Shown here: piece by piece, positions 22,637 to 56,300 of the stretch
Numbering within the stretch: position 1 is the first letter of the stretch
Layout of the letters: each line of letters begins with the position of its first letter
Assembly (NCBI GenBank): GCA_965208105.1
Contig: OZ242318.1
Location: 832,001 to 896,000, forward strand
Direction: 5' to 3'
Length of the DNA: 64,000 bases
Origin: Candidatus Latescibacterota bacterium
GTDB taxonomy: Bacteria; Latescibacterota; UBA2968; UBA8231
Translations under genes and position numbers: made by a program
The notes under the pieces: model-generated
Database searches by the model: none
Seen by the model: the letters and a program-made list of their open reading frames with translations, nothing else
What the model was told of the DNA's origin: nothing

Positions 22637-23410
22637 CTAGGCTTGCTCCTCGGGCGACTTGAAGAGGGAAATCCGGTTGCCGGCAATGTCGTTGAATATC
22701 GCCATGGAACCGAAGCCGCCGGGGATCTCACTGGGCTGCATCAGGGCGGTTGCGCCGAGGCTCACCGCCTTGTCGAGGTAAGCCTGCAGGTCGTCAACCT
22801 CGACCGCAACCGAAGGGGCGTTGGGGGGCATGCCTTCCATGTGCTGAAATATGCCGCCGCCGATGCCGTCCGGCGCCCTCTCTACGAGGCGGTAGGTCAT
22901 GCCGTTTCCCATGTCCACGGCATTTACCTGCCAGCCGAACATTTTGGTGTAGAAGTCTTCGAGCGCCGCGGCGTCGCTGCCGCCGAGCTCGAAATGGACT
23001 ACGCGGGGATGATCGGCCAATGGAGGCATCTCACCGTCCCAATCGGGGGGAAGCGAGTACAGGCCGATGGTGTTTTGGGCGGGATCCTGGAACATGGCGA
23101 TGGAGCCCATGCCGGGGGCAATCTCCATGGGCGGCAACACGCCGGCGCCACCCATGGCGGACAGCTTGTCCAGGGCCTCCTGAAGGTCGTTTACCTGGAT
23201 GTAGAAGGTCACGTAGCTGCGGACGGGCATGTCCTCGGTGGTTCCCATGATGCCGCCGCCGATCCCGCCCACGGTGGACTGCACCAGGCCGTAGTTGCCC
23301 ATCTCCTCGCCCTGTACCTGCACCTGCCAGCCGAAGAGGTCCTGGTAGAATTTCTGCAAGGCGGGACCGTCGGGGCCCCCGATTTCAAAGTGGACTACTG
23401 GATTTCCCAT
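22637..23410 (-). CDS. VOC/glyoxalase family protein, two tandem domains
   Basis: Repeated VVHFE(I/L)GG...FY..(L/M)FGW...GIGGGI...MA(M/I)FxD...N.I.L. Confidence 0.9.
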   Translation of the reverse strand: MGNPVVHFEIGGPDGPALQKFYQDLFGWQVQVQGEEMGNYGLVQSTVGGIGGGIMGTTEDMPVRSYVTFYIQVNDLQEALDKLSAMGGAGVLPPMEIAPGMGSIAMFQDPAQNTIGLYSLPPDWDGEMPPLADHPRVVHFELGGSDAAALEDFYTKMFGWQVNAVDMGNGMTYRLVERAPDGIGGGIFQHMEGMPPNAPSVAVEVDDLQAYLDKAVSLGATALMQPSEIPGGFGSMAIFNDIAGNRISLFKSPEEQA

Positions 23411-23545
23411 TGCTCCTCCTCAGGTTTATGGAAAGTCTGAGAAAATGGACCCAAACTCCAAAATTATCAATACAAAAATGGAGTTGGGTCCCGAATTATC
23501 AGATATCGGTCTGGTTGCCCCTGCAGCCTATTCTGCCCGTATCAG

Positions 23546-23582
23546 GATCAACCTGGAGACGTGGATTCCCTGTCCACTGCAC
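23546..23582. repeat. 37-bp direct repeat, copy A
   Basis: GATCAACCTGGAGACGTGGATTCCCTGTCCACTGCAC, 34/37 identical to 24277..24313. Confidence 0.85.
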
Positions 23583-23658
23583 GCGCCTCATCTACGGCAT
23601 ATCCAAGCACGCTTTTGACGGAATGTGCGAATGAGACACCCCTGCTCTGCCTGGAGCT

Positions 23659-24126
23659 TCAACTGGACATGGACCGCTCTAACGCGCGCCGCACCTCATC
23701 GGGCCTGACTCCCAATTCCTCCAGCAAGGGGCCGACAACGGGCCGCATCACCTTTCCCACCAGGGCGAGCAGCAGATGCTCGAAGCCCACTTCCCAGTTG
23801 CCCCGACTAAAAGCTTCTTCGTGCGGCAACTCGAGGACCCTTTTGACTGGGGCGGCAACGCGGGGCTGTTTGGCTGCTTTTTCGACGAAGGCAATCATTT
23901 TCGGCCAGCTCTCAAAGCCGTAATCGCGAGAAAGCGCGAATTGAGCCTCCTGCACCGTAATTCTGTTGTGCCAGCCCCCGTCACGGGGTTGACCGGCCAA
24001 GCGCGGAAGGTGCGCGCGCAGGAGCCTTCTGGCAGACTCCTGGCCGTCGTGACAGGCTTTCTGCAGTTGCCTTGCCTCTTTCTTGAGGTGCTCTTTGCTT
24101 GGTCGAAATGGAAGTGAACGGGACAT
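23659..24126 (-). CDS. small protein: LPxRPSxEHLKKxA...AQFALxRxYGFxSW helical domain plus Clp N-terminal repeat
   Basis: N-terminal MSRSLPFRPSKEHLKKEAR...EAQFALSRDYGFESWPKM; C-terminal VKRVLELPHEEA...GFEHLLLAL...LLEELGV (ClpN-like). Confidence 0.7.
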   Translation of the reverse strand: MSRSLPFRPSKEHLKKEARQLQKACHDGQESARRLLRAHLPRLAGQPRDGGWHNRITVQEAQFALSRDYGFESWPKMIAFVEKAAKQPRVAAPVKRVLELPHEEAFSRGNWEVGFEHLLLALVGKVMRPVVGPLLEELGVRPDEVRRALERSMSS

Positions 24127-24248
24127 AAGTACCCTCTTTCCGAAGTGCCGGATCGTCCGCCAGGACCGGCAGAAAGAAGGTGGATTGTACAGCGAGGTGG
24201 GGTGGGCTGTGCCCTGACCGCGAACGTGGGCGCTCCCCCGAAAGCACT
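24127..24248 (-). ncRNA. candidate structured cis-regulatory 5' leader
   Basis: Hairpins GGGC-ACA-GCCC (24204..24214) and UGCCGG...CCGGCA (24146..24171); loop GCGGAC (24155..24160) is complementary to upstream GUUCGC (24220..24225); lies directly 5' of SD AAAGAGG. Confidence 0.45.
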
Positions 24249-24254
24249 ATTCTA

Positions 24255-24282
24255 AATATACTAGAACAAAGTCTGCGATCAA
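24255..24282 (-). promoter_or_regulatory. sigma70-type promoter TTGATC-N16-TATATT
   Basis: Read directly; the same TATATT -10 occurs at 29636 and 35326. Confidence 0.55.
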
Positions 24283-24313
24283 CCTGGAGACGTAGATCCC
24301 CTGTCAACTGCAC
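24277..24313. repeat. 37-bp direct repeat, copy B
   Basis: GATCAACCTGGAGACGTAGATCCCCTGTCAACTGCAC. Confidence 0.85.
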
Positions 24314-24411
24314 CTGCTGTCCCCGGGCGAGAACAAGGCTTGGCAACCCGCTGAAGCACTCACTCGTGAGGTCTGTTGCCCATCAAATCCCAAAATAGCT
24401 ATTTTGAATCC

Positions 24412-24663
24412 ATGAAAAAGATTGCTGCAAGAGAGGCGAAGAATCGCTTCGGCCGATTGCTCGATGCCGCCCAAAGCGCACCTGTCTGCGTGACCAAGAA
24501 AGGCAGGGCAGTCGGGGTGGTTATGTCCATGGAGCAGTACCAACGGCTGCGGGGCGCCGCATGGGCGCGCTTGACGGCAACCATGGGCAGCCTAGGTGCC
24601 GAGGCGGCCTCAAAGGGATTAACCGAGGCCAAGCTCGAAGCGCTCCTGGCCGATGGGAGTTGA
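24412..24663 (+). CDS. Phd/YefM family antitoxin
   Basis: MKKIAAREAKNRFGRLLDAAQSAPVCVTKKGRAVGVVMS. Confidence 0.9.
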   Translation: MKKIAAREAKNRFGRLLDAAQSAPVCVTKKGRAVGVVMSMEQYQRLRGAAWARLTATMGSLGAEAASKGLTEAKLEALLADGS

Positions 24664-24860
24664 ACGCCTCGGGCGGTTGTGGACAGGATACAAAAGGCCA
24701 ACGGAGTCCTTTCTGTTCTCCGACGAGACCTTCGATGAGCTGCGGACCCGGCTCCAATATTCCAAATTTGACAAGTATGTCGGCCGCGATGGCCGCAGGT
24801 TGTACCTGTCTCAGCTCGAAGCCGCGAGCGCGGCGAAGTGGACGCCATCAAGTGTCGGAC
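24653..24860 (+). pseudogene. PIN-domain toxin remnant
   Basis: Overlaps the antitoxin stop; retains LFSDETFDELRTRLQYSKFDKYV but lacks the N-terminal DTNV and C-terminal CRDxDD..TGD catalytic motifs. Confidence 0.7.
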
Positions 24861-24912
24861 CCTTTCCGACACAGTCACATGCAGTCCTTCCAGGACAACT
24901 CCGCACGCTCCG

Positions 24913-25320
24913 TCATTTTTCCATTCTGTAGACGCCGATGCGAAAGCCGTACTCCTTGTAGAAGGCAACCGCGTCCTTGTTGTGGGCGAACACGTCCAAC
25001 CTGACCTTCTTGTCCGTCCACGCCTTCTCGTACAGCCAATCCAGCAACCGCGTAGCGATGCCCTTCCGGCGGTATGCTTTGCGTACGTACAATTGCCTCA
25101 TGTAGTAGTACGAACCCTCATCCCTGAACAAGCAGTAGGCGATGATGCGGCTGTTTTCTTTCACCAGGTAGCAGATGTATCCGCCTGCCAGCCATTCCTT
25201 CATCCGTCGGGTGAGCTGGGCAACGTCCATGGGATTGGGGTGCCGTTCGTCCTCGATGAGACCCTTGTTCAGCTCGGCGAGTCCTTCGACATCCACAAGC
25301 TCTGCTCTGACAATCTCCAT
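24913..25320 (-). CDS. GNAT family N-acetyltransferase
   Basis: LYVRKAYRRKGIATRLL, NKDAVAFYKEYGF. Confidence 0.88.
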   Translation of the reverse strand: MEIVRAELVDVEGLAELNKGLIEDERHPNPMDVAQLTRRMKEWLAGGYICYLVKENSRIIAYCLFRDEGSYYYMRQLYVRKAYRRKGIATRLLDWLYEKAWTDKKVRLDVFAHNKDAVAFYKEYGFRIGVYRMEK

Positions 25321-25479
25321 TTGAACGGGCCTCAAGCGCTTCGGCCGGCGCGTGGCAAGGAGGGTCAACCATATGTTGCGGGGCCATCTCGGTCAGTCGT
25401 CCATTCATCGCGCGCTGTTCGGGTGAGGTCCGACAATGCCCGGCGTTGATTGCCCGCGGAATCGAAGTTTTCCGGTGCC

Positions 25480-25618
25480 AGCCATGGCGCGCGGGATCCA
25501 CCGGTTCAACCCGGCAAGTTCTCCCATCCATCAGCGCTCGCGGCGGCGGCAATGCCGGGCGCCACTCCCCCAGGGGGGCACCCGGCGATCGACCGGGTTC
25601 CTTCAAATTTCCGCTCAT
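25480..25618 (-). pseudogene. N-terminal remnant of a RimJ/RimL-type GNAT
   Basis: PGAPLGEWRPALPPPRALMDGRTCRVEPVDPARH, after which similarity is lost. Confidence 0.55.
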
Positions 25619-26690: not shown

Positions 26691-27239
26691 ATGGATATGC
26701 CGGAATTCATCGATACAGAGAGATTGAAGCTCAGGCTGTTCAGTATCGAGGACGTCGAAGATGTTTTTTCGTACGCATCAGATCCGCAATGGGCGCGCTT
26801 TCTTCCGGTTCCGCAGCCATACACGAAAGCAGATGCTGAAGAATTTGTAGCAGGTCAAGTGTCCGGGGATCGCAAAACAGACGCGGTCTGGGCGATTGAA
26901 CACGCTGGATCGGTAATTGGTGGAGTCGGCATCAGATTTGATTTTGAAAACCGCGTCGGCGAAATGGGTTACAGCCTTGCCCGCCGCTTTTGGGGAAGAG
27001 GGTTGACCACCGAAGCTGTGGGTGCCGTTATCGACGCGGCGTTCTCGGCCTACCCGGAGTTGAATCGCATCCAGGCTTCCGCCGACCAGAGAAACGTCGG
27101 CTCCCTCCGGGTAATGGAGAAGCTCGGAATGGTCCGTGAAGGCGTCCTGCGCCAGGACAAATTCCTGAGGGGTGAATTCAGCAACTCGGTGTGGTGCGGT
27201 TTATTGCGCAGCGAATGGGAGGCAGGAACCAGGAAGTGA
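26691..27239 (+). CDS. RimJ/RimL family GNAT acetyltransferase
   Basis: IDTERLKLR, EMGYSLARRFWGRG, NVGSLRVMEKLGM. Confidence 0.9.
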   Translation: MDMPEFIDTERLKLRLFSIEDVEDVFSYASDPQWARFLPVPQPYTKADAEEFVAGQVSGDRKTDAVWAIEHAGSVIGGVGIRFDFENRVGEMGYSLARRFWGRGLTTEAVGAVIDAAFSAYPELNRIQASADQRNVGSLRVMEKLGMVREGVLRQDKFLRGEFSNSVWCGLLRSEWEAGTRK

Positions 27240-53309: not shown

Positions 53310-56300
53310 ATGAATGGTTTCAGCTTACGTTGCCCTCTTTTCATTTTTCTCGGTCTGATTCTCTCGTCGTCAGCATTCCTCCATGCTTCACCCCCGGCCG
53401 ACAGCCTCCACTTCTGCCTGCCGTTCGAATACGAGCAGTGGGAGCGGAAACGCCCGGCAGGCAAGCGGCTGGCTGATCTAAATACCGGCGAACCCCGCAC
53501 CGTTCGCCTTTTCTACTTCCTGCCCAACGACCGCCCGTTTCGTACGGACGTGGTGCAAAGAATCAAGGACGAAATCCGCAACATTCAGGTCTGGTTCGGC
53601 GAGCAGATTCAGGCGCATGGATACGGGTACAAGACCTTCCGCTTCGAGACCGACGACCAAGGGGAGCCGCTGGTTCACCGCGTGGACGGCCAACATCCCG
53701 ACAGTCATTATCTGGACAACTCGTGGGACCTTGCCCCTGAGGTTGAACAGGTGTTCGATCTGTCGAAGAGTATCGCTGTCTTCGTCATCGACAACAGCAA
53801 CAACCGGATCAACAGGACGGCGGCCGGACAGGCGAGATCGGGCTCGAAACAGAGCGGCGCCCTTCTGGTGCCGGAGGAATTCAGCTGGCAAACCCTCGCC
53901 CATGAACTGGCGCACAGCTTCGGTATGGGACACGATTTTCGCGACGACACGTTCATCCTCTCATACGGATTTGATGAACGAAGGGTTCTGTCTGCATGCG
54001 CCGCCCGGTTTCTGGCTGTTCATCCCTACTTCAATTCCGATGTCGGCGTCGAGTGGGCAGAGGCGCCAGCCATCGAACTCCTTTCCGAACATGGGTATCC
54101 GGAAGGTTCGGAGAACGTCCCCATTCGGCTGAGACTCAGCGACGCGCATGGGCTTTATCTGTTGCGGCTGCGCGTTCCCACGAGGGAGACCCACAACCCC
54201 TCCTACCTTGTAGGAGGCTGGGAACTGAAATTGTGCCGTGAAATGACGGGCGAGGAGAAAGTCGAGATTGAGATCGATTACGACGGCGTGATCCCTTCGG
54301 GCAGCGACTGGGGTTTTTCGGATCTTTCCGACCCGAAGGTGCATCCGATATCCCTCATCGTGATCGACAGGGACGGCAACAGGGCAGGCATCAGTTTCGA
54401 TCTGTGGGAAGTGTCGCGGCAGCATCAGACCACCTTCGAGCTTGCGGAGGAAGTTCACTCCGTGGCCTTTGTTCCCGGTGGCACCACCCTGGCCTCCGGC
54501 TCGGGAGAGGGAGTCGAGCTGTGGGACCTGGAGACGCGGACGGGAACCACTACCTCCCTGTCCGGCGGAGCCGGTGCGATGGCCCTTTCCCCCGACGGAG
54601 CGACCCTGGCCTCGGGGTCCGGCGCCGAGGTCCAGCTTTTGGACATGGCAAGCGGCCAGGTGATCGCCACCTTCTCCGGGCATACCGACCCGATCCGTTC
54701 CCTGGCCTTTTCACCCGACGGCGCGATGCTCGCCTCGGGGGCCGCGGACGCCATCCGGCTGTGGGACCTTGCGGCTCGAACCAGTACCGCGATTCTTCCG
54801 GTCGGCGCCGCCTCGGTGGCCTTCTCCCCCAACGGGGCGACTCTCGCCTCCGGCTCCTTCGATGGTATCCGGCTCTGGGACCTGGAGACCCAGAGGGAGG
54901 TCGCGGCGTACTGGCACGGCGGTGGGCGTGGGGTCAACACCGTCGCGTTCTCACCGGACGGAACCCTGGTCGCCTCCGGGGAGGACGATACCACCGTGCT
55001 CCTGTGGAACGTGGAAACGGGCGAGGACGTCGCCGTCCTCGAGGGGCATGATCGGCCCGTCAGAGCAGTGGCCTTTTCCACCGACGGGACCCTGCTCGCT
55101 TCCGGGGCGGACCTGGAGGTGAGTCTGTGGGATCCGGTAACGAAGGGCAGGATAGCCGCGCTGCAAGGCGAGGGAAGGGGGATCAACACCCTGGCCTTCT
55201 CTTCCGACGGCACAACCCTTGCCGCCGGAACGGGTGACGGCCGGATCGGACTGTGGGACGTGTCCGAGTGGCTACAGCCCCGTCCTCGAACGCTGATGGA
55301 GATTTCAGGGGATGACCAGCGGAGTACGACCGGTTCAGCCTTGGCGAACCCTTATGTCGTGGAAGTGAGAGATCAGTACGACAGTCCCTTGCAAGGCGTT
55401 GAGGTCACGTTTGCGGTCACGGAAGGAGATGGCACGCTCAACGAACGGTTCACGGTCGAGAAGGTGACGACCGGCGCCGACGGCCGGGCAGAGGCTCTTC
55501 TCACTCTTGGACCCGATCCGGGAACCAACACCGTTGAGGTCACGATTCCCGGAGTTGAGCTGGTGACATTCAGTGCGGTGGGGGTCGGCACACCTTCTAT
55601 CCCCCTCATGGAGGATGAATTCCAGAGGTGGCATCTCCCCGATGGGTCCATTGCCCGCCTGGGAAAAGGGCGCATAGGCCGAGGAGACAGGGTGGTTGCC
55701 TTCTCTCCGGATGGTCGGCTCCTCGCTGTTGGAAGTGAGACGGGCACCTGGCTTTACGACGTGACGACTTCCCGCGAAGTCGCCTTGTTCCCCATCGGAA
55801 ATGCGGTCATGCCGGTGGCGTTTTCCCCCGATGGATCCAAGCTCGCCTCTGCCGGGTCGCTCTGGGACGTGGCTACAGGCTCTCATACCCCTCTCGAAAC
55901 CTACTATTCAGCAGCGTTCTCTCCCGACGGGACCCTGCTCGCTCTGGGAGCATATGACGCCAGGATCATTCTGTGGGACCTGGCGGCGGGCACAACTGCC
56001 GCCACCTATGCACATCGAGGCACTGTCTACTCAGTGGCGTTTTCCCCGGACGGCACAAAGCTCGCTACGGGGAACATCGCGGGCAGGGTCTTTTTGTGGG
56101 ACGTGGCGACCGGGGCTCATGAAACCCTGGAGGGGCATACGGACGAGGTTCACTCGGTGGCATTTTCGCCCGACGGGAGGACTCTCGCTTCCGGATCCAA
56201 CGACCACACGGTCGGACTTTGGGATGTCGGGACGGGCACTCATATCACCGCGCTCGAGGGACATACGAGTTGGGTTTTCTCCGTGGCGTTTTCCCCCGAT

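Follow-up and report, generated by a model that had tools for sequence, protein, structure and literature searches.

The 64,000-nucleotide (nt) stretch of Candidatus Latescibacterota bacterium DNA analyzed here (contig OZ242318.1, positions 832,001 to 896,000; hereafter the window) contains, at 24124-24257 on its minus strand, a structured 5' leader in front of a gene for a small protein of 155 amino acids (aa). The leader comprises two hairpins, P1 and P2, a third, extended hairpin, P3, in which the Shine-Dalgarno (SD) sequence is buried, and a 6-bp long-range helix. It belongs to a conserved, covarying, pseudoknotted RNA family that is tied to the N-terminal domain of the protein encoded downstream and not to that protein's C-terminal effector. 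We read it as a pseudoknotted, SD-masking leader for translational control, with the N-terminal domain as the possible effector; to this explanation as a whole we assign a probability of about 0.4. Its elements are listed in the order of transcription.

24124-24257, minus strand: whole leader motif, from about 12 nt before P1 through the AUG; matches covariance model R2 with 100.6 bits (E 2e-23), model positions 1-139 of 139
24232-24245, minus strand: P1, the 5'-terminal hairpin GCUUU/GGAGC with loop CGGG; 4/5 pairs show compensatory changes and 89% of alignment cells pair
24220-24225, minus strand: 5' strand of the long-range (pseudoknot) helix, GUUCGC; partner at 24155-24160, 6/6 pairs covary
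24201-24219, minus strand: P2, the hairpin GG-UCA-GGGC-ACA-GCCC-A-CC with an internal loop; inner helix 99.3% paired with 4/4 pairs covarying, outer GG/CC 97.3% paired
24182-24200, minus strand: linker of variable length and sequence; alignment columns 67-118 consist mostly of insertions
24172-24181, minus strand: anti-SD strand ACCUUCUUUC; partner at 24131-24140, 10/10 pairs compensatory in alignment A6 and in alignment A7
24146-24171, minus strand: P3, the hairpin UGCCGG ... CCGGCA; 6/6 pairs covary and 90.4% of cells pair
24155-24160, minus strand: 3' strand of the long-range helix, GCGGAC, in the P3 loop; pairs with GUUCGC in the alignment
24131-24140, minus strand: SD-containing strand GAAAGAGGGU; pairs with the anti-SD strand in a 10-bp helix
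24124-24126, minus strand: start codon AUG, from the open reading frame (ORF) list and the alignment

The first-pass annotation of this DNA had described a 5' leader with three hairpins and a loop, GCGGAC, complementary to an upstream GUUCGC. All of these elements are found on the minus strand, and the finding proves larger than had been claimed. A pyrimidine tract upstream of P3 acts as the anti-SD strand, and its 10-bp helix with the SD region lengthens P3. The fold is a pseudoknot because the 3' strand of the long-range helix sits in the P3 loop. Conserved unpaired nucleotides surround the helices, including CC after P1, an NAA/A internal loop in P2, and a CGCGG junction. In a scan of the 64-kb window with R2, the runner-up to the leader site reaches 9.7 bits. 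No terminator-like site lies 3' of the motif on the minus strand; both such sites within 23300-24700 are on the plus strand.

Folded as a single sequence, the leader has a minimum free energy of -47.8 kcal/mol (z = -1.82), and 9 of 200 shuffled sequences are equally stable. This is too weak to stand alone, and the fold was therefore analyzed comparatively. The genome of origin contains four such leaders, that of the window and three belonging to paralogues, in which RNAalifold finds compensatory changes in 5/19 pairs. These four form the basis of covariance model R1, which, when run against the 4.85-Mb genome, returns the same four leaders only. Aligning 61 copies to R1 gave alignment A5, in which P3 and the anti-SD:SD helix, both absent from R1, were defined; P3 is paired in 81.7% of cells with compensatory changes in 4/6 pairs, and the anti-SD:SD helix in 85.3% of cells with such changes in 5/10 pairs. 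Model R2 was then built from 61 rows, including one locus (L044) from the unpublished genome G157; it includes P1, P2, P3, and the SD helix and leaves out the long-range helix. E-values of the covariance models built here are rough.

Alignment A6, assembled with R2, contains 74 copies (73 distinct) and leaves out the loci of G157. In it, 93.0% of 2,372 cells are standard pairs and 31/33 pairs change on both sides. On each of five measures the observed value is reached by 0/500 shuffles, and sliding the 3' partners by 1-3 columns lowers pairing to 46-53%. The long-range helix, although it has no place in R2, pairs in 98.6% of A6 cells with all six of its pairs covarying. Its variants include GUUCGC/GCGAAC, GCCCGC/GCGGGC, AUCCGC/GCGGAU, GUCUGC/GCAGAC, GCCUGC/GCAGGC, and GUCCAC/GUGGAC. 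The pairing of GUYCGC with GCGGAC, on whose conservation in homologues the first-pass annotation had staked its proposal, is kept. The anti-SD:SD helix retains G-U pairs at several positions, for example a U-G in 48 of 73 sequences at one pair, and its flanks also covary in actinobacterial and acidobacterial copies. About 60 motif positions are nearly invariant across phyla.

Metagenome contigs were sampled separately, by means of a 25-nt pattern limited to P2 and the 5' strand of the long-range helix. The pattern occurs in at least 120 stretches, of which 80 loci were taken. R2 matches 79 of these at E <= 0.001, most of them over the full length, and in 77 of the 80 the predicted partner position reads GCGGAC or GCGGAU; a contig end cuts off the other three. 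Because the search pattern fixes P2 and one strand of the long-range helix, neither helix can covary in this set. In the resulting alignment, A7, 93.2% of cells pair, the anti-SD:SD helix has compensatory changes in 10/10 pairs and P3 in 5/6, and 0/500 shuffles match these values.

The protein encoded behind the leader has two parts, as follows.

23659-24126, minus strand: whole coding sequence (CDS), 155 aa, from the ORF list
23866-24126, minus strand: N-terminal helical domain, residues ~1-87, from profile, AlphaFold2 model, and cluster search
23668-23823, minus strand: single Clp_N repeat, residues 102-153 (PF02861, E 8.8e-6)

The leader recurs upstream of genes that share the first part and differ in the second, as the annotation had stated. 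A hidden Markov model (HMM) of the N-terminal domain, built from alignment A4 of 18 sequences, matches within 400 nt downstream of 54 of the 61 leader copies and in 0 of 61 upstream controls. Of those 61 copies, 18 contributed to the HMM and nine had been picked by their protein; among the 52 found by RNA only, 45 are followed by the domain. The seven copies without a match comprise five with broken ORFs, one with an ankyrin fragment (L028), and one that is decayed and lacks an ORF (L036). The five (L016, L017, L025, L049, and L054) have a domain-like start followed by a break, either from frameshifts or from assembly errors. The ORFs downstream at these five loci and at L058 and L063 break within 20-110 codons and may represent pseudogenes or assembly indels. 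In the metagenome set, 72/80 copies are followed by the domain, and six of the eight misses have less than 105 nt of downstream DNA before the contig ends. In the opposite direction, all nine loci chosen by protein similarity only have the RNA ending at the start codon (34-96 bits), or 8/8 without L044 of G157. As in autogenous leaders, the RNA lies within the mRNA of its partner protein family, here as a co-occurrence only.

The C-terminal modules of 23 downstream proteins are unrelated to each other and include ankyrin, Clp_N, sigma-54 AAA+, FliM, FliG_C, TPR, and LRR with or without DNA-ligase domains. In the genome of origin, residues 1-87 used as a query retrieve six further genes with the same N-terminal domain, 26-38% identical among those that bear the leader; as judged from their translations, four are ankyrin-repeat-like and two resemble aminoglycoside-phosphotransferase-type kinases. 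Three of the six share the architecture of the window's leader. The leader almost always precedes genes that start with this domain, and the RNA and the domain therefore probably work together.

The distribution of the motif is broad. Many of the genomes searched are incomplete metagenome-assembled genomes (MAGs), and relatives are non-independent samples. In 61 related genomes, R1 yields 112 matches summed over 26 genomes, with up to 16 per genome and E-values outside the genome of origin down to 1e-26. Counted per genome in these 61, which is descriptive only as they are kin, RNA and domain are both present in 25, the RNA alone in one (the decayed copy), the domain alone in three, and neither in 32. 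Across a phylum sample, R2 matches 58/151 genomes, and five distant genomes contain 5, 4, 3, 7 (G157), and 5 copies in the whole genome. The closest relatives of the protein are in MAGs titled Latescibacterota and Gemmatimonadaceae, and more distant ones are in MAGs titled Longimicrobiales, Verrucomicrobiota, Acidobacteriota, and Streptosporangiaceae. Leader-bearing genes often occur in tandem, each with its own leader: four are spaced by ~1.3-1.6 kb on one Verrucomicrobiota contig (G154:C165; L077, L081, L086, and L090), and pairs 1.8-2.6 kb apart are found in several relatives (G019:C61, G126:C73, G005:C8, and G033:C60).

The N-terminal domain itself belongs to a large family. Searching 1.84 billion representatives with its profile returns 9,759 clusters at E <= 0.001 and 4,886 at E <= 1e-10. 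In 149 of the top 150 proteins the first copy begins no more than 25 residues from the N-terminus, and 95 of the 150 contain two or three copies in tandem; stand-alone single-domain proteins of 99-140 aa also exist. The domain has the signature LPxxPsLxxLKKQAK...AREYGFxSW, and AlphaFold2 models it confidently as five helices (predicted local distance difference test score 86.2). Among the 135 best representatives (P0031-P0165), the fused modules include ankyrin (33), Clp_N (17), FliG_C (6), FliM (5), LRR (4), and bifunctional nuclease (3); rarer ones are the ClpX zinc finger (2), FliG_N (2), and single instances of Lon substrate-binding, receiver, T2SSE, and other domains. The ankyrin and ClpN fusions that the annotation had named are found both in the downstream proteins and in the representatives. 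Substrate-recognition modules of AAA+ proteases are fused to the domain without the ATPase part (Clp_N in 17, the ClpX zinc finger in two, Lon in one). The fusions to protease substrate-recognition and flagellar-switch-type domains hint that the family may act as adaptors or decoys.

No Pfam or NCBIfam family of its own was found for the domain, and residues 1-87 of the window protein match no Pfam family at E <= 0.1. Positions ~4-58 of the 143 in the Glyoxalase_8 model (PF20066) align to 9 of 18 N-terminal domains (best E 9e-4), but all of these matches are below the 23.7-bit cut-off, with three printed scores of 13.2-16.0 bits, and do not place the domain in that family. Judging by this alignment, PF20066 seems to include a shortened version of the same N-terminal module, joined to a VOC fold. 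The VOC fusion that the annotation had also named is supported only in this indirect way; no match above the cut-off was obtained. Within this comparison, the aligned model positions are what the two have in common, and the window protein differs in having Clp_N and no VOC domain. An OST-HTH/LOTUS match, likewise below cut-off, occurs in 2 of 18 domains (best E 0.0015). A search of the ESM Atlas gives 0.78, which is a lead only.

The leader is predicted to occlude the ribosome-binding site. The predicted probability that the SD strand is unpaired has a median of 0.028 in 72 native leaders versus 0.37 when the upstream part is shuffled, and in 61/72 leaders it is below that of the leader's own shuffles. 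The promoter noted in the first-pass annotation, TTGATC-16 nt-TATATT, is present on the minus strand and is the only promoter-like site on that strand within 23300-24700.

24277-24282, minus strand: -35-like hexamer TTGATC; 9/12 consensus matches for the promoter, spacer 16; inside a 37-nt repeat at 24277-24313
24255-24260, minus strand: -10-like hexamer TATATT, 9 nt before P1

A TANNNT hexamer ends 8-10 nt before P1 in 43/73 family members, with an excess of A and G at positions -3 and -2. From this register of -10-like hexamers we infer a transcript start 1-3 nt before P1. Conservation ends at the AUG: the third positions of the first 20 codons mostly have 0-0.6 bits, and up to 0.9. The RNA element is therefore an untranslated leader, and the domain is conserved as protein; because third codon positions are mostly free, a constraint at the RNA level that extends into the CDS is rejected.

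Given the masked and covarying SD helix, we interpret the element as one that controls translation initiation. It is probable that transcription starts 1-3 nt before P1 and that initiation is controlled through sequestration of the SD in the extended P3 helix, an SD-masking hairpin that the pseudoknot would lock to the P1/P2 domain. In the proposed mechanism, the N-terminal domain, supplied by the window gene and its paralogues, would bind the folded leader, and binding would feed back on the translation of all leader-bearing genes, much as free ribosomal proteins act on their own mRNAs. The domain is the best single candidate for the effector because the RNA follows it whatever the C-terminal module. 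That it autoregulates through the leader is a tentative proposal, for which we can cite the pairing of RNA and domain, the N-terminal position in 149/150 proteins, and the weak OST-HTH/LOTUS match.

Several observations weigh against this explanation. A profile raises the number of copies of the domain in the genome of origin from seven to nine, and five of these nine lack a full leader. When three leaderless paralogues were searched with filters off, two showed nothing better than E 0.73 and one retains just the SD-proximal part (13.7 bits). A few leaders, in turn, lack the domain: L028 and L036, described above, and L033, whose own ORF matches FliG_C only. Near-identical leaders on up to 16 genes per genome would make the feedback pooled and not gene-specific. 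By thermodynamic prediction the SD is paired, or off, by default, and no conserved alternative pairing that frees it was found. A candidate "on" pairing, in which the anti-SD strand would pair with the purine-rich 3' side of P1, forms in 84% of cells but equals shuffles (86/500) and slid controls, and we rejected it. The domain has a median isoelectric point (pI) of 8.7, with values below 7 in 38% of 233 copies; it is not uniformly basic, and this spread rules out uniform basicity as a hint of RNA binding. A sequence profile of the domain finds a designed protein as its best match in the PDB (E 0.013), Foldseek finds nothing in the PDB at E <= 0.001, and a wide search with VIA-align reveals no convincing relative (best Z 3.9). 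The domain thus has no convincing relative, by structure or by sequence, among known RNA binders; this, the spread in pI, and the leaderless copies make autoregulation less likely but do not exclude it. In metatranscriptomes, two runs each contain one short contig within the CDS (23945-24124 and 23696-23865; 95-99% alike), and the leader is uncovered. The RNA libraries that contain the gene are labelled as sponge metagenome.

Of the alternatives, the one we take most seriously, although we consider it unlikely, is that the leader is the operator of a regulon in which a separate trans-acting factor co-regulates the leader-bearing genes, either a small RNA or an RNA-binding protein such as a stand-alone N-terminal domain protein of ~100-130 aa. 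Single-domain proteins of 99-140 aa do exist, the many near-identical copies per genome (up to 16), some in tandem arrays, are what a regulon would have, and the C-terminal modules are mostly protein-binding or substrate-recognition domains, so that the genes resemble adaptors with an N-terminal docking domain. However, neither a candidate factor nor a complementary small RNA was identified, no conserved neighboring gene was seen, although no systematic search for one was made, and a regulon would not by itself account for the rarity of leaders that lack the domain in cis. Also unlikely, and placed behind the regulon, is a riboswitch, in which the core formed by P1, P2, and the pseudoknot would bind a small molecule or ion and set the state of the SD helix, while the domain answers the same signal without contacting the RNA. 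SAM-II, preQ1-II, and guanidine-III are SD-occluding pseudoknot riboswitches of comparable build. The leader resembles riboswitches in its conserved, covarying, aptamer-like fold in a 5' untranslated region (UTR), with highly conserved unpaired nucleotides around the helices (CC after P1, the P2 internal loop, and the CGCGG junction), in the combination of a pseudoknot with an SD-sequestering expression platform, where the SD is within the covarying 10-bp helix, and in its presence in several phyla. The downstream genes, however, encoding ankyrin, Clp_N, FliG/FliM, LRR, TPR, and sigma-54 AAA+ modules, have no common metabolic or transport theme that would tie them to one ligand. Only the N-terminal domain is common to them, and a tie to a protein domain is unlike known riboswitch regulons. 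The failure to find a conserved alternative fold also speaks against a riboswitch.

An element that needs no ligand is improbable. It could be an RNA thermometer, or it could be constitutive; P1 would stabilize the mRNA, and the G-U-rich helix would tune ribosome access or gate it by temperature. This would suit the G-U pairs kept in the anti-SD:SD helix, the location of P1 at the inferred 5' end, and the predicted burial of the SD. RNA thermometers, however, tend to be simple hairpins whose sequences are poorly conserved. The SD-masking helix of the leader contains G-U pairs, and the extensive conserved structure beyond it would be atypical of a thermometer. About 60 positions are near-invariant across phyla, the covarying pseudoknot and P2 would be superfluous, and the strict tie to one protein domain would be unexplained. 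Least probable by far is a feature of the DNA, for instance a recombination site, a mobile promoter cassette, or a repeat spreading along with the exon-like N-terminal module. The gene lies between two copies of a 37-nt direct repeat and in a patch of small genes of accessory type (VOC, Phd antitoxin, GNAT), and a contig from a related strain skips 926 bp that include it, all of which would be expected of such a feature. Yet the compensatory changes in 31/33 pairs, the strand-specific G-U pairs, the fixed register of promoter and start, and the SD pairing all point to a transcribed single strand, and the 37-nt repeat, which occurs just twice in the genome, is upstream of the motif and outside it.

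In comparison to known systems, the leader is a new RNA family whose partner protein domain lacks a family of its own, whereas the kind of element, a structured 5' UTR that masks the SD and is tied to a gene family, is already known. With Rfam 15, the only match in 23000-25500 of the window at E <= 10 is a chance match to SNORD75 at 23534-23599, outside the leader. Twenty further copies searched at E <= 1 gave only chance microRNA matches elsewhere in one locus, and 10 copies from several phyla gave none; in these 31 copies no Rfam family was found, in agreement with the suggestion that the motif was undescribed. Autoregulatory leaders of mRNAs for ribosomal proteins and RNA-binding proteins, for example the pseudoknot leader of Escherichia coli rpsO, to which S15 binds, are among the nearest known types. 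Like the leader described here, rpsO/S15-type leaders are structured and often pseudoknotted 5' UTRs before the gene of one protein, with the ribosome-binding site in the fold and co-occurrence of RNA and protein. Unlike them, the partner here is a portable N-terminal domain with many unrelated C-terminal modules and up to ~18 paralogues per genome; no RNA-binding activity is known for the domain, and no mimicked cellular RNA was identified. The SAM-II, preQ1-II, and guanidine-III riboswitches are similar in having a compact pseudoknot beside the SD and a translational platform without a terminator, but at ~135 nt with three hairpins the leader is much larger, it shows no similarity to their models (Rfam E > 1), and its genes are without a common metabolic function.

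Comparative genomics has also been reported to yield motifs upstream of genes for domains of unknown function (Weinberg et al. 2017, PMC5737381). The leader resembles such motifs as a conserved, covarying structure before the genes of one protein family of unknown function, and it differs from them in both the partner domain and the architecture of P1, P2, P3, SD helix, and pseudoknot; the word "ankyrin" has 0 occurrences in the paper's main text. The part of the literature that was covered contains no report linking ankyrin or the N-terminal domain to an RNA motif, and the supplements of motif surveys may hold an unnamed equivalent.

Discoveries of structured cis-regulatory RNAs spanning several phyla have become rare, and this one occurs in hundreds of copies in the sampled genomes and metagenomes. 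Its association is unusual in that the motif tracks a protein domain rather than a gene function. The ~85-aa domain could be a new type of RNA-binding domain that recognizes the pseudoknotted leader of the very mRNA encoding it, the two forming a portable self-regulating cassette, a possibility that we regard as doubtful. If true, this cassette would have been placed, in five or more bacterial phyla, before dozens of different modules for protein binding and substrate recognition, and the total pool of adaptor-like proteins would be under one shared translational feedback. Knowing whether domain and leader bind each other would assign a function both to this mRNA leader and to a large family of functionally uncharacterized proteins. 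Symbiont ankyrin-repeat proteins have long attracted interest, and the presence of the gene in sponge-metagenome RNA libraries makes the family relevant to symbionts.

The C-terminal part of the window protein belongs to Clp_N, its match of 26.2 bits being above the Pfam gathering cut-off of 20.7. Relatives are mostly ~231 aa long with two repeats; the 155-aa form is also found in P0001 and P0002. The two copies of the 37-nt direct repeat, which are 92% identical, are at 23546-23582 and 24277-24313 and are the only ones in the 4.85-Mb genome. They cover the -35 region and upstream sequence of two adjacent minus-strand genes, the Clp_N gene and a VOC/glyoxalase gene at 22637-23410. We read the repeat as a locally duplicated segment from upstream of a promoter; it may be a promoter or operator segment. 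An integron attC site would be one of a family of imperfect inverted repeats bounding many cassettes of the same orientation near an integrase. We rejected the repeat as an attC site, cassette boundary, or mobile-element end based on the two copies, on its location upstream of the motif, and on neighboring genes that lie on both strands; an integrase was not searched for. No copy of the leader was found before the VOC gene with filters off.

One DNA run (X7) contains a contig (depth 3.8, 90% setting) that joins 23523 to 24450 via 9 other letters and thereby skips 926 bp comprising the gene, the leader, and both 37-nt repeats. This suggests that the presence of the gene differs among related strains, although the contig could stem from another organism. 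The summed contig depth in the DNA runs is ~167 at 23441-23534 and ~55 at 24616-24662, versus 3.5 around them; the former stretch includes an inverted repeat located between the VOC and Clp_N genes. Because both stretches are single-copy in the genome, the extra depth comes from other contigs of the samples.

Upstream of the leader, on the plus strand, a gene at 24376-24663 encodes a Phd/YefM-type antitoxin (PF02604, E 3.6e-12) and overlaps a 92-aa ORF at 24653-24931 (plus strand) without a Pfam match; together they may form a toxin-antitoxin pair. GNAT acetyltransferase genes are found at 24913-25368 (minus strand) and, by reading of the translation only, at 26691-27239 (plus strand). The GC content at third codon positions is lower than in the surroundings over a patch from ~18 to ~27 kb of the window. 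Further along the window, at 53310-58751 (plus strand), an ORF of 1,813 aa contains ~15 or more repeat units of ~123-126 nt, which, judged from the repeat period, look like WD40-type repeats.

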